Under the pieces are notes generated by a model. It ran no database searches. It had not been told where the DNA came from and was given only the letters and a program-made list of their open reading frames with translations. Positions 1-43,345 of a stretch of 43,345 nt of DNA are shown here, one piece after another. The position numbers were made by a program, and so were the translations under genes. Every line of letters begins with the position of its first letter. Position 1 is the stretch's first letter. The DNA is taken from sequence record OR352933.1, one strand, 5' to 3'. Origin of the DNA: Escherichia phage AV102.

Positions 1-16
1 GGGATTCAATCTAGCT
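1..16. repeat. Terminal direct repeat copy: gggattcaatctagct, also the last ~16 nt of the window
   Basis: Exact identity of window start and window end; consistent with terminal redundancy or a circularisation overlap of a complete phage genome. True repeat length cannot be judged from one copy. Confidence 0.6.
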
Positions 17-239
17 TATGTCCTTCGCGGTGTCAACCCTTTTTATCGAGTATCTAACCCTTCACACTATCTAGCTTTAATCCGGCGGAGTCTCCCGACT
101 CTGCCCCGTTCAGCGCCTCAGCGCCTCCCGGTGATTGAACTATAGCGCCAATAAACCAAAAGAAGCAAGTATTTTTTAATGCTTTTTGCAATTATTTATC
201 TCTAAGAGCAAAAAGGGTAAGCAGGGCAAATACTTAGCC

Positions 240-935
240 AATGCTTCCATTCTAGGGATAGCTCTAGGGATAGCCCAATACTAGCCAATACTAGCCAATA
301 CCATCTAACACTACACAAAGCAGAACGTAGTGCCCGTACGAAGTGAAAGGGCACGTAGTGATGCGGTGACTGTGTTGGTAATGCTTACTCCCTACGGTCG
401 TAATATAGGGCATTACTAGGGGATACTAGTGAGTAGTAGTAAGTAGTATGTATCTAGTGCCCTAAAACCCTCCTACTCCTGTAACATCATTTCAAATTAG
501 CTTTCGAATGAAAGTAAGGGTAAGGGATAGCTCTAGGGATAGCAAGGGATAACGCTAGGTGGCGGATAGTGGTGAGTAGTGGATGTGCGCCCTAGTGGGG
601 AGCGCGCAGCGTAGCATATAATCGGCACAATGTAAAGCACTAGAGATAACCCTAGAGATAGCTCTAGAGATAGCATATAGACGCACTAGCGGCGCACTGG
701 GCGGCCCACTACTGGCCCACTAGAGGCCCGCAAAATAAGCAAGGCAGAGCGCACCCCTACGCCCCACAGAGAGCACCCAGAGCGCACGCAGGGATAAACC
801 TAGTGCCTCCCAGAGCTTCCCAGAGCCTCTACAAGGAGCACATAGGGATAGGCATAGGATAGCTCCAGTGATAGCCATTAGACCGCGCAGGGAGCTTCTG
901 CGGCCCTCATGGAGCGCACTAGGGATAGCCATCTA
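240..935. repeat. Repeat-rich noncoding genome terminus with tandem and dispersed CTAG-containing 10-12-mers
   Basis: TCTAGGGATAGC x2 tandem (251-274); CTAGCCAATA x3 tandem (271-300); CTAGAGATA(A/G)C x3 tandem (640-674); further GGGATAGC copies at 524-559, 843-876 and 919-930. No credible ORF. Confidence 0.8.
471..487 (-). promoter_or_regulatory. Copy 1 of the exact 17-bp element (minus-strand ATGTTACAGGAGTAGGA); candidate phage RNA polymerase promoter near the genome end
   Basis: Plus-strand tcctactcctgtaacat, identical to 11157-11173 and 22743-22759. Lies in the noncoding terminus with no gene downstream, positionally like T7 phiOR. Confidence 0.45.
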
Positions 936-1157
936 GCCGTCTAGACACCCCCCCCCATCCTTTATACACTAGGCACCCCCTATGGGGGCACTGGGGCGCG
1001 TTGAGGGTGAGGGAGGGCCTCGCGTGAGTCTAACAAATTTCGAGTTCAGGTATACATCTGCGCAGGGGAGAAGCCCCAGTGATGTTCCAGGCGCTTCTCT
1101 TGTATGCACTTGCAACCCCTAGAGAGTATCTGTGCTCTTTAGGTGTCAGTAATATAA

Positions 1158-2678
1158 CTACCGCTGCGCTGATACCGTCCAGCCAAAGTAGTGGTCCCCC
1201 GATACATTATTACGAACACGTATAATAATGTTCTGACCAGATACCTCAAACCAGAACGGGGCGTTGATATCTGTAGTAGGAGTTACCTGAACGTAGCGAC
1301 CTTGTAAGGCGCGCGATATACCGGTAGGTACAGTAACCGAGTTGGTCCCTGAAGCCATCTTAGCTGCCCCAGTATTATAAGTAACATACTGCGGGCAGTT
1401 CTCGATGGTGACAGCTGCATCGCTAGCATTACTTATTGCACCGTTTACATTACCTCGGGCATCTACGTTAACGAACTTAACACCACTACCAATACCGTCA
1501 GATATAAAGATCCCGTAACCTTGATTATTAAACTCGAATACAGGAGTTGCACCAGCCTTAACGTTTGTGAAGTTCACATTCTGCACCCCGGCCCCTAACT
1601 CTATTCCGTGCTTCTGTCCGCGGGTTGCCATACTGTTAGCATTACAACTGATGTTACTGAAGTTAATGCCTCCTACACTATAACCTGTGAGCAGTATCCC
1701 TGAGCCTTTATTGTTAACACAGGTCAGTCCGTTAAAGTTCAGGTTCTCAAGCCCACCATTCTCAGCATTAAGGTGTACTCCAGGATGTAATGCAGTCGTC
1801 CCACAAGAACTTCCCCAGCAACCGTTGAAGTTCAGGTCTGAGACACTGGCTCCCCCCATAGGGGCAAACATTAACCCACACTCCTTACAGGTATCGCCTA
1901 AGATAGCAGTGTAGAAACTCCCCCTACACTTAGTAGCACCAGACGGTAGCCAGGCGTAACCATACTTCATTCCCAAACAGTCGATGTTAGACGCATAGAC
2001 GCCAGAGGCATTGACCTCCTTAACCCCACATCCTTTACCACCTCCTGACAGTACTAGGTTCTGCAGGAACACATCCTGAACTACAGCCGAAGAGGTATCG
2101 CCTATCACAATAACATCTTCGCTAGTAGTTGCACCGTTAATGGTACAGTTGTTTACGCGGTAAATAAACTGCTGGGGACCGCCGTGCATCTTAAGGAAGT
2201 TATAGAAGGGACCATCTACACGAACATTCTCCAGGCATAAGTTGTATCCGTTAGTCCACGTAATGAAGTCGCCGCGCGTATGTGTCCCATCCACAATAAT
2301 TTGTAGGTCACGGATATGAACATTATTAATATTGGTAGATGCTGTACCGATGGCTGCAAAAGGCACGTTAATTGCAGAGTATAAAAGTACAGTGCTGCCC
2401 TGTCCTGCTCCCACCAAATGCACATTATTATAGAATGTAAGAGAGCCCTTTAAAGTCCATGTACCAGAAGGTACAGTTACGGCCCCTCCTCCTAGGCTGT
2501 GAGCGTGATTAATCGCGGCTTGGAAGGCAGCTCGTGAGTCAGTATTACCTGGAATAGCTCCGAAGTCTGCAACACTAATGTTATCCATTAGTTTAGACTC
2601 CATGGTACGTTCAACTGCACCTGTTGCAGACGCTTTCCAGTTAACTAACCATGTAGCCACTTTGGTAAGATTTAGCAT
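1158..2678 (-). CDS. Tailspike / receptor-binding protein with pectate-lyase-like beta-helix (probable capsule or polysaccharide depolymerase)
   Basis: 506 aa. N-terminal DFGAIPGNTDSRAAFQAAINHA...GGAVTVPSGTW resembles the pectate lyase superfamily signature; Gly/Asn/Ser-rich repetitive body with many Cys; last gene of the genome. Confidence 0.75.
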   Translation of the reverse strand: MLNLTKVATWLVNWKASATGAVERTMESKLMDNISVADFGAIPGNTDSRAAFQAAINHAHSLGGGAVTVPSGTWTLKGSLTFYNNVHLVGAGQGSTVLLYSAINVPFAAIGTASTNINNVHIRDLQIIVDGTHTRGDFITWTNGYNLCLENVRVDGPFYNFLKMHGGPQQFIYRVNNCTINGATTSEDVIVIGDTSSAVVQDVFLQNLVLSGGGKGCGVKEVNASGVYASNIDCLGMKYGYAWLPSGATKCRGSFYTAILGDTCKECGLMFAPMGGASVSDLNFNGCWGSSCGTTALHPGVHLNAENGGLENLNFNGLTCVNNKGSGILLTGYSVGGINFSNISCNANSMATRGQKHGIELGAGVQNVNFTNVKAGATPVFEFNNQGYGIFISDGIGSGVKFVNVDARGNVNGAISNASDAAVTIENCPQYVTYNTGAAKMASGTNSVTVPTGISRALQGRYVQVTPTTDINAPFWFEVSGQNIIIRVRNNVSGDHYFGWTVSAQR

Positions 2679-2687
2679 TCTGTTCCC

Positions 2688-3287
2688 TTATCTAGGTATA
2701 GCGGCAACTGCCGCTTGCGTTGATTTGAATTCATTCCCTATAGCCTTAGATTCCCACATACGGCGCTCCCATAGGCCCCAGCATACCTTATTACGCTGCC
2801 CGTTAATATACTGAGAGCAGTCAAAGGTCCAGCGGTTGCCACCCTTGTACACCCAACCGGTGCCTGGGGATTTCTGCTGGTACTTGCTAATGTAACGCCA
2901 GTTCAGCACAGCCTTTCCAGCCGCTGCGTAATCTAGGTTTTTGAGGTGCCGTTTCACAGCGCTGCCATTGAAGCCGGCTACGCCTACGTTATAGATGAAG
3001 TCTACAGACCCTATCAGAGCCACGTCAGAGAGCTGCATAGGAAGCCCGTCAAGAGCCTTAGCATGTTCCCCTGCTGATTCTATCAGTTGCTTCTGACAGT
3101 CGCTCAGCGTGGCTCTCTGACCCATTTTGACACCCTTTGTCTCCCCGTAGCAGATCGTAGGGATACCGGCACTGTCCTTGTAGGCTGTAAGACTCAAACC
3201 TTCATTGTGCTGGACTACCTCAGTAATAGCCCCGCCAAGCATAGTAGCCCCGGCGAGTGCAGCTATAACCCTAGTCCTTAAACTCAT
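2688..3287 (-). CDS. Endolysin, T4-lysozyme-like muramidase (GH24) with signal-arrest-release N-terminus
   Basis: Catalytic E-x8-D-x5-T context (NEGLSLTAYKDSAGIPTICYGET); Gly/Ala-rich weakly hydrophobic N-terminus RVIAALAGATMLGGAIT. Start moved to the internal Met at 3287 (RBS AAGGGGG upstream); the track ORF extends to 3311. Confidence 0.8.
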   Translation of the reverse strand: MSLRTRVIAALAGATMLGGAITEVVQHNEGLSLTAYKDSAGIPTICYGETKGVKMGQRATLSDCQKQLIESAGEHAKALDGLPMQLSDVALIGSVDFIYNVGVAGFNGSAVKRHLKNLDYAAAGKAVLNWRYISKYQQKSPGTGWVYKGGNRWTFDCSQYINGQRNKVCWGLWERRMWESKAIGNEFKSTQAAVAAIPR

Positions 3288-23113: not shown

Positions 23114-25582
23114 TCAACAAAAGAAGAATGGAGATTCAAGCACTTGTCGGATGTCCAAAGTACCGATTGCAGGCATCTCTAAATCTGTGAGGTCTGCCCC
23201 TGCTTCGGCAGCTGCCCGGGTAATATCTCCAAGCAGATCGTGCTCCTCGTACAACTTCACAAACTGTTCACGGATATGTCGGTGCAGGGCATCTACATCA
23301 ACCGCGTGAGTAGCCATTGAGTCGTGAATCGGGACAATATCCAGACCCTCTGCAGCACAGAGCACCATCATGAGGTGTGTGCTATCTAGGCTATGCACAA
23401 AGTTCGGGGCAATACCAGAGGCAGCCTTGCGCTTATTACAGGTCTTAAAGTCACGGTTGTGCACCAGCACGGCAGATAGGTTCATACAATCAATACGTAC
23501 ACGCACCTCCTCTCGCTGAGAGTACCGGTTCATCACCAGCCCACCTAGCGGGGTCTTCCACTGCAGATGCTGACTAGCAGGTACACGCCTAGCGAGGTTC
23601 TGCAGATACCCCATAGCTGCTGCTGCTGCTGGGTTAGCTTCCTCAATAGCGCTACGCATTCTAGGGGCAAGGTAGCAGGATAAGTTCCAGAGACTGTGCG
23701 TGTCTGTTCCTTCATACCCCTCTTCACAGGCCCCTGCAAAGATGTAGTCGCTGCAGCTGCGCACCGTGGCGCTGTAGAAGTAGGTCATGCTAGGACGCTT
23801 GGTCATGTTTCGAGTAATCTCGTTCTCTCTCCAGTACGTGCTCTGGATAACGAAATCCTCTTTGTCCAGGTCCAGTATCACCTTCTCGTCCGTACGGCGC
23901 TTCACGTCCATATACAGATCCGCTTTCTTGTCGTTACCCTCCCAGTACAGGTTCGTCAGGCGTCCGCCTACAGGGTCTCTCAGGAGCGCTGAGAGGTGCT
24001 GCCCACCTGAGTTTGTAGCATCCATAGCAACTGGGATTCGGCTAATATACTCTTCTGGGCATCCAGAACGTACAGCATTAACCAAGTCGATAGCGGATGC
24101 TAGGAAGCACCAAGGGCTGTCGGCGGAGGTAAAAGCAGGGCAATCAAAAGGAGAATCCGCGAGCTGCTCAATCTCTGCAAAGTTTGCATCAACCCAAGCT
24201 GCGCGGTCTTCGAATAGGGTTTTGTCATAACCAAAGCAGGTAGCGACGTGCACTTTAAGCCAGAATAACCCTCTCTCTCCCAGAGGTTTACCTCGTCCGA
24301 ATTCAAGAAGTGCCTTCTGCAAATCAGAACCTTGGGGGTGCAGTGAGGACTTGAAGTACAGCCGGTACCGCCAATCCACACAGGTTGGGAAGTACAGGGC
24401 TTTCTCATCTTTGAATTCCTCTGCCATCTCTAGCGTGGTCAATAGACTACGTAGTTGCGACACACGTTTACGGTCGGCGCTGTACCATAAGGACATACGC
24501 GTCTTCCACTCTCCGAAGCGGTCGAGTTCCTCCTCGGTGTAATTCTCTTTTGGTACACCATCTAAGTACCACTCAGGTTTCGGATCTGGCACTGAGCGCG
24601 GCATACCTACACCAATACCTAAGGCCCGTGCTTCTTGTACCAGTTCCAGTATTCGCTTATTAATGCGATAAGGAGTTTCCTGCGCCTTATTAAGTGCCTT
24701 CTTGATACCGTCCGCAGACTTAAATGCTTCCGCTACTTCACGCAGTCTGGCGCGGTCAATGTGTGAGTTGTGGTACGTCCCACGGTTATCGATTGGGGTG
24801 AGGTATCCACCATCCCACAATGTAGTATGTGGCACCGGCGGTACCAGCATCGGAGGCTTCATAGTTACAGTGTCAGCAGATTCCACTAACTGCTGAAATG
24901 CTTCCATAACATTATCTGCGGGATAGAGCATACTCAAGTTCCCGCTACCAGTCTTCCACTGGAACAGCCCCGTCTCAAACACTGCGGAACACAGCAGACG
25001 TCCCACAGCAATATTCTGAGCGTTGGTCCAAGGCTCATGCCCATAGTGCACGTTCTCAGCACTGGCGCGGAGCGTACGCAGAATGTGCGTAGGCGACTTA
25101 GTACGGCGCTCAGTGAGGTATTCATATACCCGGTCCATATATGCTGGGGCAACATTACGCAGTTGTAGGGCCAGCAGCTCTGACTGTACATTCCTACCCA
25201 GAGCGGACATCACTGCCTGAGCTGTCTGGCGGCGACTGGCGGACTCACCAGGGGCGACACTGAACGCCTCAAACATTGTGCACAGGCTCAGAGTAGTTAG
25301 GACATCCAAGGGGACTAAGCGTAGGAATCGGCGGTACTTTCCACCGATACCCGGGGCTTTGACGTTACGCATTTCCTCAATGGCTGCAGAGGCCACGTCG
25401 TACGCAGAGGTTAGCATGCGCTGAGCCATAGGCAGGTTCATAATCCCGCCGTTTTGCAGAGCATCGGTAATCAATTTGCGAGCACGTTCAATGCCGCGAA
25501 TCTTGTAGGTCTCTTCAAGCTCCAACTGACGTTCCACCAGCGCTTCATCTGGTACTACAACCGTATTCAGGGCGCTAATCAT
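23114..25582 (-). CDS. Single-subunit DNA-dependent RNA polymerase (T7-like)
   Basis: 822 aa; AMDATNSGGQHLSALLRD and IHDSMATHA resemble conserved T7 RNA polymerase catalytic motifs; located late, next to the structural genes. Confidence 0.9.
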   Translation of the reverse strand: MISALNTVVVPDEALVERQLELEETYKIRGIERARKLITDALQNGGIMNLPMAQRMLTSAYDVASAAIEEMRNVKAPGIGGKYRRFLRLVPLDVLTTLSLCTMFEAFSVAPGESASRRQTAQAVMSALGRNVQSELLALQLRNVAPAYMDRVYEYLTERRTKSPTHILRTLRASAENVHYGHEPWTNAQNIAVGRLLCSAVFETGLFQWKTGSGNLSMLYPADNVMEAFQQLVESADTVTMKPPMLVPPVPHTTLWDGGYLTPIDNRGTYHNSHIDRARLREVAEAFKSADGIKKALNKAQETPYRINKRILELVQEARALGIGVGMPRSVPDPKPEWYLDGVPKENYTEEELDRFGEWKTRMSLWYSADRKRVSQLRSLLTTLEMAEEFKDEKALYFPTCVDWRYRLYFKSSLHPQGSDLQKALLEFGRGKPLGERGLFWLKVHVATCFGYDKTLFEDRAAWVDANFAEIEQLADSPFDCPAFTSADSPWCFLASAIDLVNAVRSGCPEEYISRIPVAMDATNSGGQHLSALLRDPVGGRLTNLYWEGNDKKADLYMDVKRRTDEKVILDLDKEDFVIQSTYWRENEITRNMTKRPSMTYFYSATVRSCSDYIFAGACEEGYEGTDTHSLWNLSCYLAPRMRSAIEEANPAAAAAMGYLQNLARRVPASQHLQWKTPLGGLVMNRYSQREEVRVRIDCMNLSAVLVHNRDFKTCNKRKAASGIAPNFVHSLDSTHLMMVLCAAEGLDIVPIHDSMATHAVDVDALHRHIREQFVKLYEEHDLLGDITRAAAEAGADLTDLEMPAIGTLDIRQVLESPFFFC

Positions 25583-38861: not shown

Positions 38862-40858
38862 TAAGCTGCCTCCTGTTCTGCTTTAGCTTCTTTGTCTTCT
38901 TCGGCTTCTTCATTACCGAGGTAGGGCTCATCCAATACGGACGCAGCATACTCCGTGAGAATCATACCGTGCACTGGGTGCTCTTCGGCATGCACACTCA
39001 GAACATTGTACCCTTGTACGCACACCATTGGCCCCATATCATGAACTGTGCCCTCTACAGCACAATGTTTTACGTCACAGTCAAGTACCCAAGAATCGTG
39101 GTAATCGGACCATGAACAATCCCATGATGGGTACACCCGGTCGCGCCCTACTACTTGTACGTAAGTATCCCCAATGCAGTGGGTACATACATAACCACCA
39201 TCAGCAGCTATGTACATGTCCTCCTCGTCGAAACGTCCCCCACACTCTGCACAAGCACTGCGACCATCATCAATCCAAATGTACCCATCAGCGTCCTGCG
39301 CTTCGTAGTCGTAGCAGTCGCAGATAACGAATGCATCCCCGCCCAATTCATCAACCCCGTCTTGGTTCCCATCCAAGTACGGCATAAGCACGGCACCATC
39401 ATGCTCCGGGTGCGGGATACGCGCCAGTAGTGCGCCATCTAAGCAGTCTGTATCGCACTCATATCCATTAGCACGCAGGATGGCATCTGCAGCATCCCCA
39501 TATGCACGGACGTATTCATTGGTTTTGATGTTAACGATAGCACGGGCGTGTACTTTAAAGTCATCGCCAAAAAGTTCACCTGTATACTGAATAAACAGTC
39601 GCAGATTATTGTCAGGCAGGCCGTGACTGGTCGTAGCGTATACACGCACCGGGCTATATTCGAATTTGTATCTGGTCATGCAGCTACTAGGGCCATTCTC
39701 GTACGCGTTGTACCACTCCCGCTCGGTCTTACAAAGATATGTAGTAGGTTCCACGTTCATAGCTTTGAGGTCTTCAATACATTCCCGGAAGTCTACACCG
39801 CTGCCGTAGTAGTTAGCGAGCCACTTACCTACACGCATCTCCACACAGCGATACTCAGTAACAGCGGCATAATCTTTGTGCAACCGCGGTTGCCCCAGCA
39901 TTACTACAGGCTCACCGTTGCGGAAGCCAAAACCCAGCGGGATTGCAAACCTAGACACTACAAATCCGTGCAACTGCATAAGCAAGGTTGCTGCCCAGTA
40001 ATCTCCCTCACGCCCAGTGTACGCGCCGCAAGTGTATTTGGCCCGGAGGGAGTACGTAGGTGCTAGCATAATCTCTTCGAACAACTCTATAGCCTGCTTG
40101 TGCACTTTGTATCCGGTAAAGTATTGGACCGCTTCTACTACGCGTTCTGTAACTACGTCGGGGCCATCATAGAAGGTTCTGCTAGATAAACCGAATGCCT
40201 GGTCGCAGGTGGCTGCAGGGTCAAGGAGTTTATGCAGGAGAGTGTCACTAATAGAAACTGTGCCCAGCGGCCCAGTAAAGTTACCCAACTCCTCTCCTGC
40301 AGCTGTAAAGTTGCCGAGTGCTACAATAGGTCCCGGCAGCACCCTTGACAACATATAAACGCCATGCAAAAGCGCACGTGTTTTGTTACTTCGCACGCGC
40401 ACACGGCCTTGAGTTGATAGGTAGGGAAGTTGGCACCAGTAATCCCCGGAAGAGTACATACTATCCTTCAGTGGAAGAGCATTGGCCCCTTCTGGAAATT
40501 TGATGGTCCAACTCTCATAGACAGGTACTTTTACGTCTACAGTTACTTTGTTAGTCTCTTGCATTTTCTTTGTCTCCGGTGTTAGTAGTAACTCATCATA
40601 CGTTAAAAGTTCAGCGCGCATACCACGCAGAGAGTTGTCGCTGCTTGTAGTAGGCGCGGAGTGCTCTTCTAAATTGCGTATAAGCCCCGCGATACCCATA
40701 CTTCCGTAGCGCTGCAACCACATCAAATGCGATATGCTCTTGAAGTTTCCGCGCGGCAGATTCTGTATACTCCCGGTATGCTTTGAGCACAACCGTTGTG
40801 TCTTGCCTGCGCACTCTAAGTATTCGGCGATCGACCGGTACAATTCCTTTGAGTTCAT
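38861..40858 (-). CDS. Large early orphan protein with Cys/Asp-rich C-terminal region and acidic tail
   Basis: Up to 665 aa; start uncertain (alternative ATGs at 40621 and 40564; the first 82 codons overlap the upstream ORF). C-terminal region has CxxC...CxxC pairs (CAECGG...CTHC); no enzyme motif recognised. Confidence 0.55.
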   Translation of the reverse strand: MNSKELYRSIAEYLECAGKTQRLCSKHTGSIQNLPRGNFKSISHLMWLQRYGSMGIAGLIRNLEEHSAPTTSSDNSLRGMRAELLTYDELLLTPETKKMQETNKVTVDVKVPVYESWTIKFPEGANALPLKDSMYSSGDYWCQLPYLSTQGRVRVRSNKTRALLHGVYMLSRVLPGPIVALGNFTAAGEELGNFTGPLGTVSISDTLLHKLLDPAATCDQAFGLSSRTFYDGPDVVTERVVEAVQYFTGYKVHKQAIELFEEIMLAPTYSLRAKYTCGAYTGREGDYWAATLLMQLHGFVVSRFAIPLGFGFRNGEPVVMLGQPRLHKDYAAVTEYRCVEMRVGKWLANYYGSGVDFRECIEDLKAMNVEPTTYLCKTEREWYNAYENGPSSCMTRYKFEYSPVRVYATTSHGLPDNNLRLFIQYTGELFGDDFKVHARAIVNIKTNEYVRAYGDAADAILRANGYECDTDCLDGALLARIPHPEHDGAVLMPYLDGNQDGVDELGGDAFVICDCYDYEAQDADGYIWIDDGRSACAECGGRFDEEDMYIAADGGYVCTHCIGDTYVQVVGRDRVYPSWDCSWSDYHDSWVLDCDVKHCAVEGTVHDMGPMVCVQGYNVLSVHAEEHPVHGMILTEYAASVLDEPYLGNEEAEEDKEAKAEQEAA

Positions 40859-40955
40859 CTGGAACCTCTTTGAATATTTCCCACGGGCAGCCGCACTTGC
40901 CCTGCGTTTCTAGCAAGCGCCAACACAGTAGCGCTGTTTCGTCTACTGTAAGCAT
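40611..40955 (-). CDS. Hypothetical basic protein (114 aa)
   Basis: Arg/Lys/Tyr-rich early ORF. Confidence 0.5.
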   Translation of the reverse strand: MLTVDETALLCWRLLETQGKCGCPWEIFKEVPDELKGIVPVDRRILRVRRQDTTVVLKAYREYTESAARKLQEHIAFDVVAALRKYGYRGAYTQFRRALRAYYKQRQLSAWYAR

Positions 40956-40957
40956 AC

Positions 40958-41173
40958 TTAATCCTTGAATACTACGTTGCGGGCCACTAGTGTATTCTTG
41001 TCGCTGAATATTACACCGCCAATTTTACGGTATGATGCACTCCAACGGTTTGTATTAGGTACAGCGACTTCCGCACCGAAATACAGGGGGCTGTCTAAGT
41101 TCACCCGGTATAGCAGACCATTTGGACGCTTGTATACGTCGTATCTAACCGACTTGTTCTTACTATTGTTCAT
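40958..41173 (-). CDS. Hypothetical protein (71 aa)
   Basis: Early-region ORF. Confidence 0.45.
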   Translation of the reverse strand: MNNSKNKSVRYDVYKRPNGLLYRVNLDSPLYFGAEVAVPNTNRWSASYRKIGGVIFSDKNTLVARNVVFKD

Positions 41174-41355
41174 ACTACACCTCGCACATTAAAACGGTGA
41201 CAATAACCGCGCAAGGTCATACCCAGGCGCTTTGCTTGTTTCTCATAGTGCTGGCGCAGTGCTGCCTTTGCGCTATACTCCCGCGCCAGCCCGTCAATAG
41301 TTTGCTGCTGCTTACGTATAAGCAGCATCTCGGGATTCTTTCCGTACATACTCAC
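41170..41355 (-). CDS. Hypothetical protein (61 aa)
   Basis: Early-region ORF. Confidence 0.45.
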   Translation of the reverse strand: MSMYGKNPEMLLIRKQQQTIDGLAREYSAKAALRQHYEKQAKRLGMTLRGYCHRFNVRGVV

Positions 41356-41368
41356 CTCAATACTTACC

Positions 41369-41632
41369 TCAGATACCGTTGTTGCTTACACCGTCCACGG
41401 TCAGAGTTACAGCGATGTTGGGTTCTTGCTCTCGCACCGCCTTGAGTAGACGGGCACCTAATGCCTTACAACCGCCCTCTGGATTCTCAAAGAGGTCGTA
41501 CTCAGGGCGTGGTTGCTGCTCTTGGTGCTGCTCTTGTTGAACGTGTACAGTGCAATAAGGCACTGGGTTATTCACGTCGTTGCCTAGCACCAGCATAGCG
41601 CTGGTAACAATGATATTGACAACACTAGTCAT
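41369..41632 (-). CDS. Hypothetical protein (87 aa)
   Basis: Early-region ORF. Confidence 0.5.
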   Translation of the reverse strand: MTSVVNIIVTSAMLVLGNDVNNPVPYCTVHVQQEQHQEQQPRPEYDLFENPEGGCKALGARLLKAVREQEPNIAVTLTVDGVSNNGI

Positions 41633-41846
41633 AAAGTTGTCTCCAGTCGGTAATAATACCGAGATTCACGGCATCCAGCAAAGTACGCGCCGCTGCTTCG
41701 GTATAGGTGTCTACGAGATCTAAAGGGAATTCCTGATTGGTGTCGCGGTCAGAGAATATCATCACAGTATAGTTATACTCTGCGTGCACTTGATTGCACC
41801 ATAAGGGCCAGAGTATATGCCCCGGATAGATTAGCTTTGCTTTCAT
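41625..41846 (-). CDS. Hypothetical protein (73 aa)
   Basis: Early-region ORF with GAGG RBS, about 25 nt downstream of a conserved hairpin. Confidence 0.55.
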   Translation of the reverse strand: MKAKLIYPGHILWPLWCNQVHAEYNYTVMIFSDRDTNQEFPLDLVDTYTEAAARTLLDAVNLGIITDWRQLYD

Positions 41847-41870
41847 TTGAAACCTCGTTGTTAACGGTAT

Positions 41871-41901
41871 TCACATAGCGCCCCGCAGGACGCTATAGGC
41901 T
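41871..41901 (-). promoter_or_regulatory. Conserved early-region hairpin element, copy 1
   Basis: Minus transcript AGCCUAUAGCGUCC-UGCG-GGGCGCUAUGUGA: 10-bp stem including G-U pairs, so strand-specific. Confidence 0.55.
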
Positions 41902-42034
41902 TACCATTATACGTATTCTCCCAATCCCTCATAGTGCCACCTGTTATGGCGGCCCCGGGTTGGCACATCAAAGGCGTCAGAGTCGTTAGCTGCCGGAATC
42001 AATGCCCACCACTTGATAGCTTGAATCTTATAAA

Positions 42035-42619
42035 TCATGCCGCTACCTTCAAAGTTGCATCCAATACAGCGCGTACATCCACGCCCTGACTGATAAGCAT
42101 AGATACCAAATCAGAGTCGCTCACCCCAGTTTCTTTAGCCTTCTTGATAGCGTTTTTAACGCGCCCCAGCGCTTGCAGGCGCACTGCATCGGCATCAAGG
42201 GCATCATTCTTCACTTGTTCCGCTTCGGCAGCGTACAGGGCCATGCAGGCGCTGTAGAAGCTGGACACAATCTCTTCCCGGCCTTGCTTATCAGCTTGTT
42301 TATAATCCAGACGCACGGCGTCCAGCTCGATACCCAGTTTCTCGGCTGATGTATAGCACTTTTTGGCGTGGAACTCGTACTTGCCCGACTCCTTGTTGAA
42401 CTTGATAGGTAACAAGGTACGCAGAACCATATCGAAATCAGCGGCATCACTGCGCTGCATATCCGTTGCCCATGAAACGTTACTACTAATCAGGCCGTGA
42501 AACAGTGCGCTGATAGTGATGTTGCGTTTTGCTTCCACTACATCGCCCAGCGCTTTACGGATGCTACCCGCAGCAGTTAACTTGAATACTTTGGCAGTTG
42601 CATTGGTTGCTTTAGTCAT
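42035..42619 (-). CDS. Hypothetical early protein (194 aa)
   Basis: ORF with AGAGGTG RBS; no recognisable motif; not strongly acidic. Confidence 0.6.
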   Translation of the reverse strand: MTKATNATAKVFKLTAAGSIRKALGDVVEAKRNITISALFHGLISSNVSWATDMQRSDAADFDMVLRTLLPIKFNKESGKYEFHAKKCYTSAEKLGIELDAVRLDYKQADKQGREEIVSSFYSACMALYAAEAEQVKNDALDADAVRLQALGRVKNAIKKAKETGVSDSDLVSMLISQGVDVRAVLDATLKVAA

Positions 42620-42655
42620 GATGCACCTCTTTGATTGGTTGTTTAGGTAATTACT

Positions 42656-42686
42656 TCACATAGCACCCCATAGGATGCTATAGGCT
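42656..42686 (-). promoter_or_regulatory. Conserved early-region hairpin element, copy 2
   Basis: Minus transcript AGCCUAUAGCAUCC-UAUG-GGGUGCUAUGUGA: same 10-bp stem as copy 1 with one G-C pair replaced by A-U. Confidence 0.55.
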
Positions 42687-42690
42687 GTAA

Positions 42691-42906
42691 TTAGCGTCCG
42701 AACTGCCCAGCAGTGTACCAGCCTTGCGGGGCCTTGCTGCTTCCCTTTGTTTTGGTCTTACCGCGTACATTCGTACTAAACGTCGCAGATTGCTTCATCC
42801 GCATATACCCAGCACGATTAAGTGCATCCCGGCGTTTTCTCAATTCCGAACCGGATAGCTTCTCAAGTCCAGCGAATTGCTGTGCTAACTTCTCACGATA
42901 TTTCAT
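42691..42906 (-). CDS. First early gene, small basic protein
   Basis: Start MKYREKLAQQF at 42906 (GAGGTG RBS); the track ORF starts 15 nt upstream. Confidence 0.5.
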   Translation of the reverse strand: MKYREKLAQQFAGLEKLSGSELRKRRDALNRAGYMRMKQSATFSTNVRGKTKTKGSSKAPQGWYTAGQFGR

Positions 42907-43179
42907 TGTACACCTCATCAAAGTTAATGGTTAGCGCCCTAGCAGTGTTTAGCAGGACGCTAACTTTTAACCTTGTTGCCCACTGCACTACCGTGGAACC
43001 TGTGGTTCAGGTTTCGGCGCTATTCTTTTAAGGGGCAGCGCCTCAGCGCCCCCGCCGTTTGTCGTCTCGGCCCTTGACGTTACATCTTTGCTGCACTGAT
43101 TATCTAGGATTGGTCGTCATCGTACCAGTCAAGGTACTGGGCCTCACCGCAAATCAGCTTACTACGTTGTTCGCTATCT

Positions 43180-43208
43180 AAGTTACTAGGTGAATCGGAA
43201 CTTGTCAA
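43180..43208 (-). promoter_or_regulatory. Candidate host sigma70-type early promoter
   Basis: Minus-strand TTGACA (43208-43203), 17-nt spacer, weak -10 TAACTT (43185-43180); AT-rich upstream; about 270 nt before the first gene. Confidence 0.3.
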
Positions 43209-43329
43209 GCGTTTATTTCTTACTACCTGTTAGCGCCTCCTTGCGCGTCCTACCTTGCATCTTCCGATGCCTCCCCGTTGAAGCCTTTTAACGTGATGCT
43301 AATCACCTATCGGGAAGTCTTCTTACTTC

Positions 43330-43345
43330 GGGATTCAATCTAGCT
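43330..43345. repeat. Terminal direct repeat copy matching positions 1-16
   Basis: Same 16-mer as the window start; boundary is approximate by 1 nt. Confidence 0.6.

Follow-up and report, generated by a model that had tools for sequence, protein, structure and literature searches.

Layout of the genome record

The window, i.e. the whole 43,345-nt stretch of DNA analysed, has all its long ORFs on the minus strand, here called the gene strand. Its right-hand 2.3 kb matches 246 phage records, nearly all of them Klebsiella/Escherichia Drulisvirus (KP34-like, Autographiviridae, Slopekvirinae), and the nearest relatives of this part are Escherichia phage EC22.5-2 (94.5%) and Minorna (91.4%). The genes, the genome ends and the candidate promoters are located as follows, each with the evidence for it.

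42697-42906, minus strand: gene 1, the first early ORF, coding for a basic protein of 69 aa (protein 91-99% identical in relatives)
23114-25582, minus strand: single-subunit phage RNA polymerase gene (PF00940, E = 4.9e-89; PF14700, E = 2.5e-10)
1-16 = 43330-43345, no strand: end overlap of exactly 16 bp (the 16-mer is found nowhere else in the window)
747-1013, minus strand: predicted direct terminal repeat of ~267 bp, collapsed to one copy (terminal repeats of KP34, AttikonH1 and SU552A)
1157-1014, minus strand: unique right end, after the last gene (alignment to the right ends of relatives)
139-190, minus strand: candidate promoter P1, TTGCTT 168-163, 18 nt, TATAGT 144-139, with A-tracts at 190-169 before it (position weight matrix, PWM, and conservation)
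8-36, minus strand: candidate promoter P2, TTGACA 36-31, 17 nt, TAGATT 13-8, the latter duplicated at 43342-43337 (consensus scan, 10/12; spans the record junction)
43180-43208, minus strand: candidate promoter P3, TTGACA 43208-43203, 17-nt spacer agttccgattcacctag, TAACTT 43185-43180 (sequence, PWM, conservation and prior annotation)

No Pfam family was matched by the gene 1 protein. The phage RNA polymerase gene starts ~18.8 kb from the predicted left end. Because this gene lies mid-genome the early genes must be read by the host polymerase, a point already made in an earlier note on this DNA. The same note described the leader as 420 nt long with only one plausible host promoter, and proposed that early expression may depend on unusual promoters or on a longer terminal repeat that is hidden from view.

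The leader does not end where the record ends. Window 1-1100 corresponds to the extreme left end of the related genomes, in the opposite orientation. In EC22.5-2, positions 1-1090 match window 1-1100 and adjoin 1076-3251, the counterpart of the right end of the window. According to a nine-genome alignment, the junction of the window ends is read without a break in EC22.5-2, SU552A, KpV74, AttikonH1, SFN6B, Minorna and KP34. As the two ends overlap and the relatives are contiguous across the junction, the leader extends further, into window 1-1013 of the minus strand. The actual leader therefore runs, on that strand, from 1013 to 1 and then from 43329 to 42907, which puts the gene 1 ATG ~1,436 nt away from the physical end.

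Direct terminal repeats (DTRs) are annotated in KP34 (1-216), AttikonH1 (1-247) and SU552A (1-149); when transferred to the window by homology, they begin at 1013/1012 and reach as far as 747. For KP34 and AttikonH1 the right end of the genome can be aligned over window 1054-747, that is, the unique right end and then the repeat, and the segment 747-1013 occurs a single time in the window. By this comparison the physical left end of the genome would be at about window 1013, on the minus strand. The overlap of the ends, the contiguity of the relatives across the junction and the mapping of their DTRs inside the window together indicate that the record is a permuted circular assembly. We consider it probable that the window is a complete Drulisvirus genome, given as its reverse complement, circularly closed and opened at an arbitrary point inside the left-end non-coding leader; this estimate is a joint one, and includes P3 being the third of three tandem sigma-70 early promoters. 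The record is best re-oriented and re-opened at about window 1013 on the reverse strand, with the ~267-bp terminal repeat restored.

Within the predicted terminal repeat there is a homopolymer run of C (G on the gene strand) at about 949-957, whose length is ~9-17 among relatives. This spread may reflect sequencing or assembly uncertainty, or genuine length variation. Between the terminal repeat and P1, at window 253-929, scattered units of ~12 nt, CTAG(G/A)GATAGC, and related short repeats are found, as they are in the relatives. T7 has short repeats beside its terminal repeat, and the repeats at 253-929 are in the matching position.

Candidate host promoters in the leader

The TTGACA with a weak -10 that the earlier note reported is present at exactly 43180-43208 on the minus strand, with a 17-nt spacer and a -10, TAACTT, that agrees with TATAAT at 3/6 positions. 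Its -35 matches the consensus at 6/6 positions and the spacer is the optimum of the 16-18 bp range. The -10 retains T-12, A-11 and T-7, and lacks the TG of an extended -10. The A-rich stretch agaaataaacgc directly precedes the TTGACA, while agatagc directly follows the TAACTT; the transcript would start at about 43171-43174. P3 is on the gene strand in the ORF-free leader, with 303 nt from the start of its -35 hexamer to the gene 1 ATG. As a candidate member of the sigma-70 class P3 looks typical in its -35, spacing, position and constraint, and marginal in its -10.

The consensus scan requires at least 4/6 in each hexamer, and P3 is not listed by it since its -10 falls below this threshold. 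When scanned in this way, 42907-43345 contains no gene-strand promoter, and P3 has the sole TTGACA of that segment. The only site that the consensus scan finds in 40500-43345 is on the plus strand, TTGACG-18-GATTAT at 43074-43103 (9/12); its -10 is unconserved in relatives and the match is probably due to chance. Another combination, TTGACT at 43132-43127 with GATAAT at 43104-43099, was rejected, as the 22-nt spacing is too long and the -10 is variable in relatives.

At the other end of the window the leader contains P2 and P1. P2 is the only one of the two that reaches from one record end into the other, and its transcript is predicted to start at about window 1 or 43330-43328. For P1 the predicted start is at about window 132, and the A-tracts upstream of it resemble an UP element. 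Measured from the left end, the predicted starts are at ~882 (P1), ~1013 (P2) and ~1170 nt (P3), i.e. with spacings of ~131 bp between P1 and P2 and ~157 bp between P2 and P3.

The three sites were scored with a sigma-70 PWM, as the earlier note had suggested for the region. The PWM was built on the consensus frequencies of Harley & Reynolds and Lisser & Margalit and is not a trained matrix; it was applied to the reconstituted leader, with a null, and to both strands of the whole circularised genome. The scores are 9.95 bits for P1, 15.3 bits for P2 (15.7 in the scan of the whole genome) and 13.3 bits for P3. The low score of P1 is due to its weak -35. In the reconstituted leader no other gene-strand site scores as high as P2 and P3; the null has its 95th percentile at 13.8 for a best site and at 11.8 for a second-best one. 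Taken alone, P3 scores close to the 95th percentile for the top chance match in a random sequence of the size of the leader (13.3 versus 13.8). Over both strands of the 43.3 kb genome P2 ranks first and P3 third. TTGACA occurs five times on the gene strand of the whole genome, and two of these five are P2 and P3.

These results bear on the proposal that there is one poor promoter only, with early expression through non-sigma-70 promoters or a terminal repeat absent from the sequence. Such a reading agrees with 42907-43345 taken by itself, where the consensus scan is empty and a single TTGACA is found. It does not agree with a leader that, instead of being 420 nt long, continues into window 1013-1 and there holds a 10/12 promoter, P2, together with P1. 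Nor is a hidden repeat needed: the terminal repeat is predicted inside the window, at 747-1013, and the 12 top sites of the leader scan include none on its gene strand and a single one on its opposite strand (TAGACA-17-TACACT, 942-970). We regard this explanation as hardly credible. The missing part of the leader, with canonical P1 and P2, was in the window all along, and the puzzle of a single promoter is an artefact that arose because the record was opened inside the leader.

P2 and P3 are already known as predicted promoters, and P3 is an ordinary one. Host-like promoter features are annotated in GenBank at homologous positions in SU552A (943-971 and 874-902), KpV74 (1082-1111 and 939-968) and KP34 (931-959). 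Among these, SU552A 943-971 and KpV74 1082-1111 are homologues of P3, and KP34 931-959 is a homologue of P2. Eriksson et al. (2015, Viruses 7:1804, Table 3, PMC4411677) give TTGACAAGTTC.GATTCACTGAGTAACTT and TTGACACCGCGAAGGACATAAGCTAGATT as host promoters of SU503, NTUH-K2044-K1-1 and F19, and describe host transcription as beginning at these predicted sigma-70 promoters. The published sites of SU503, NTUH-K2044-K1-1 and F19 include ones identical to P2, and the F19 site TTGACAAGTTCCGATTCACTGAGTAACTT differs from P3 by two spacer bases. The order of the promoters and their distance to gene 1 in the host-promoter set of 'Kp34likevirus'/Drulisvirus are as in the window; the difference is that the window record is permuted, which places the three promoters at opposite ends of the sequence. 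P1 (TTGCTT-18-TATAGT) is absent from the published lists, and SU552A instead has another nearby site, 683-710. All Drulisvirus promoter assignments, the present ones included, are in silico: no experimental transcript 5' ends or transcriptome for Drulisvirus or KP34 were found in the searchable literature.

Conservation of the candidate promoters and the proposed early transcription plan

Conservation was evaluated in 47 leaders, namely that of the window, those of three GenBank records and 43 from IMG/VR loci identified by means of the gene 1 protein. P1 is present in 41 of the 47. Its TATAGT is invariant, the TTGCTT is altered in one leader and the spacing is always 18, while the distal spacer and the upstream A/T are variable; in KPV811 the P1 hexamers are identical and the spacer is different. 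Being absent from the published promoter table, P1 is a candidate addition to the annotations. P2 is likewise present in 41/47 leaders, as a near-invariant block.

P3 is found in 25 of the 47 leaders, with a 17-nt spacing in all of them, and 10 of the 17 spacer columns are variable. Each hexamer has two variable columns, with single rare variants (TTGACG together with TAAATT, CTGACA, TACCTT), and T-12, A-11 and T-7 are invariant. In Minorna both hexamers are intact and the spacer is largely different; in one IMG/VR leader (L022) the spacer is also divergent and the hexamers are promoter-like. This pattern, Minorna included, is the footprint expected of a promoter and not of general similarity. 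Part of the conservation of the P3 region is simple relatedness, as the region is 80-95% identical among most relatives.

P3 is dispensable, since it is missing from 22 of the 47 leaders, KP34 included. In leaders that lack it, P2 abuts the same downstream sequence (agtaagctgRtttgcgg), and P3 looks like an optional duplicated promoter module. It could be asked if the module is active at all. P3 might be silent or very weak, a decaying duplicate of the P2 module, with early transcription essentially from P1 and P2. The 3/6 -10, the many leaders without P3 compared with those without P1 or P2, the direct joining of P2 to agtaagctgRtttgcgg where P3 is missing, and the TTGACA-N17-TAnnTT layout common to P2 and P3, which suggests duplication, would all fit. 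In a decaying copy, however, the two hexamers and their exact distance would not be expected to stay intact as the spacer diverges, which is what Minorna and L022 show, and the observed variants retain or even improve the promoter (TAAATT), with A-11 and T-7 never changed. We therefore judge a silent P3 to be unlikely.

Another possibility is that the P3 block is part of the 5' UTR RNA made from P1 or P2, or the binding site of a regulator, and that the TTGACA is incidental. The block does lie within the transcripts expected from P1 and P2, and the leader downstream of it is structured (z = -3.4), with covarying helices; the minimum free energy (MFE) fold of the 5' UTR began at 43173, with the P3 block outside it. 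The conservation at P3 is nevertheless on two hexamers 17 nt apart and not on a helix, and no operator-type inverted or direct repeat is found within 43180-43208. This makes a non-promoter role very improbable. The reading that we find probable, jointly with that of a permuted Drulisvirus record, has P3 as a host sigma-70 promoter, the one nearest to gene 1 in a tandem of three early promoters.

In two of the leaders, KPV811 (L007) and L025, P2 and P3 are not found upstream of gene 1. They have another promoter cassette, in which 'aaaaacaggtaTTGACAac' matches the T7 A2 upstream and -35 region over ~20 nt. The cassette suggests that early-promoter modules may be exchanged among Autographiviridae.

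According to the proposed model, the left DNA end would enter the cell and host RNA polymerase with sigma-70 would bind P1, P2 and P3. Transcribing rightward, the host polymerase would first pass a structured 5' UTR of ~270 nt and enter gene 1, and would then read the early and middle genes as far as that of the phage RNA polymerase. Initiation at P1-P3, their relative strengths and a role in the pull-in of the genome are predicted from the sequence.

The layout is similar to that of T7. A terminal repeat, arrays of short repeats, three tandem host promoters and the first early gene follow each other in both, and in the window the leader is also structured. In T7, A1, A2 and A3 are tandem E. 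coli sigma-70 promoters upstream of gene 0.3, with starts at 498, 626 and 750 (T7 record). Their hexamers are TTGACT/GATACT (A1), TTGACA/TAAGAT (A2) and TTGACA/TACGAT (A3), each -10 having 4/6 matches; by analogy, a perfect -35 combined with a -10 of 3-4/6, as at P3, is of the A1-A3 type. The starts are spaced by 128 and 124 bp in T7 and by ~131 and ~157 bp in the window, and they are at 498-750 from the left end in T7, compared with ~882-1170 here. There is no sequence homology between the promoters of the two phages. The T7 RNA polymerase gene lies ~3 kb in, compared with ~18.8 kb in the window, so the host polymerase must travel much further here. The activity of the T7 early promoters and their role in genome entry have reportedly been established by experiment, and in the window both would be expected by comparison. 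The phage appears to follow the standard early-expression plan of the Autographiviridae, and the shortage of promoters is only apparent, due to the point at which the record was opened.

Predicted RNA structures of the leader

The earlier note also described a GC-rich imperfect palindrome in the leader. The palindrome is real, with GGGGC at 43052-43048 as the partner of GCCCC at 43036-43032, and belongs to a larger structured region, in which three elements were found.

43016-43053, minus strand: conserved RNA element, a candidate H-type pseudoknot that includes the palindrome (covariation in 34 distinct sequences)
42997-43013, minus strand: small conserved hairpin, AACCUG, loop AACCA, CAGGUU (three pairs changed on both sides, e.g. 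GCCGG/CCGGC and ACCCUG/CAGGGU)
42916-42978, minus strand: long irregular hairpin directly upstream of the ribosome-binding site of gene 1 (dG = -31.3 kcal/mol, z = -6.2, none of 200 shuffles as stable)

In the first element the palindrome forms helix S1, and a second helix, S2, pairs GGCGCU at 43042-43037, within the S1 loop, with AGCGCC at 43021-43016. The only arrangement in which S1 and S2 could form together is an H-type pseudoknot. Its helices would be of 5 and 6 bp, with a loop 1 of 5 nt, no loop 2 and an A-rich loop 3 of 10 nt; the loops GCUGA and UUAAAAGAAU are near-invariant.

To evaluate the helices, 34 distinct versions of the element were aligned, taken from IMG/VR, GenBank and one metagenome scan. 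S2 is paired in 204 out of 204 cells (100%), and its two variable pairs are GC in 19 sequences, AU in 12-13 and GU in 2-3. The inner five pairs of S1 are always paired, with changes from GC to AU and from CG to UA and with G-U variants. Changes on both sides are seen for three pairs of S1 and two of S2. Among 500 shuffles none reaches the observed percentage of paired cells, number of both-side-changed cells or covariation score, and the remaining two measures are reached by 1 and 17 shuffles. The sequences are close relatives, and the independent events behind these numbers are few. The single-sided intermediates are all G-U in the sense strand, and an RNA structure is therefore favoured over a DNA palindrome.

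The calculated energies are -9.2 kcal/mol for S1 alone, -9.4 for S2 alone and -18.8 for the nested MFE fold, obtained with ViennaRNA, which cannot score pseudoknots. The nested fold, an outer stem CGGC/GCCG with an extended hairpin, is the thermodynamic MFE, yet it is broken in 8 and 13 of the 34 sequences and is less supported than S2. The palindrome is not an unusually stable hairpin on its own (z = -0.55). It does not look like an intrinsic terminator either: UUAAAAGAAU, and not a U-run, comes next on the gene strand, and neither strand has a terminator-like site at this place in the scan. With Rfam, 42600-43345 is without a match at E = 10 or below and 1-1300 has only chance-level ones (E above 1), and no described pseudoknot in this leader was found in the literature. 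The element is missing from 15 of the 47 related leaders, which have a different 5' UTR.

Two metagenome contigs (L056 and L062) that fit the pseudoknot pattern were discarded as chance hits; their likeness to the window is confined to a match of 30 nt. The 15-mer GGCGCTGAGGCGCTG, the core of the pseudoknot region, has a second copy at 108-122 on the minus strand, just after the predicted P1 start, which is unconserved in relatives.

We tentatively suggest, at less than even confidence, that the palindrome is one half of an undescribed, conserved and functional H-type pseudoknot (43053-43016) in the host-transcribed early mRNA leader. A translational operator that occludes the ribosome-binding site is not what it would be, because the first start codon is ~125 nt further downstream. 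Acting in cis on the transcript, or on a host polymerase that travels ~17 kb to the RNA polymerase gene, it could protect the 5' end, serve in its processing or bring about put-like antitermination. The operator of T4 gene 32 mRNA is an H-type pseudoknot, and HK022 put is a cis-acting leader RNA. The window element is like them in being compact and structured, in an early-mRNA leader and with crossing helices, and unlike them in having no sequence similarity to either. If true, the pseudoknot would be a new cis-acting RNA in a phage genus that is used therapeutically. This covarying RNA structure of the leader is mildly novel, and nothing else in the analysis is.

The long hairpin at 42916-42978 is possibly a site of RNase III-type processing or a stabilising structure. 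When EC22.5-2 is aligned by eye, one of its predicted pairs is changed on both sides (gcAtcc/gggTgc, versus gcGtcc/gggCgc in the window).

Its stem is resembled by two intergenic hairpins, cCUAUAGC(A/G)UCC-loop-GGGG(U/C)GCUAUG, at 42650-42700 and 41865-41915 on the minus strand. One comes after gene 1 (z = -2.4) and the other after a later early gene (z = -3.9), and the two copies differ by one compensatory pair. This intergenic motif has been described as a putative phage promoter or nick site (Eriksson 2015, PMC4411677). An alternative reading, by analogy with the sites between the T7 early genes, is that the hairpins might be RNase III-type processing sites.

Finally, the P1-proximal transcript contains a small hairpin, GGC-A-GAGUC-GGGA-GACUC-C-GCC, at 85-106 on the minus strand. 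SU552A, KpV74 and KP34 have GAGCC...GGCUC at this place, a compensatory change.
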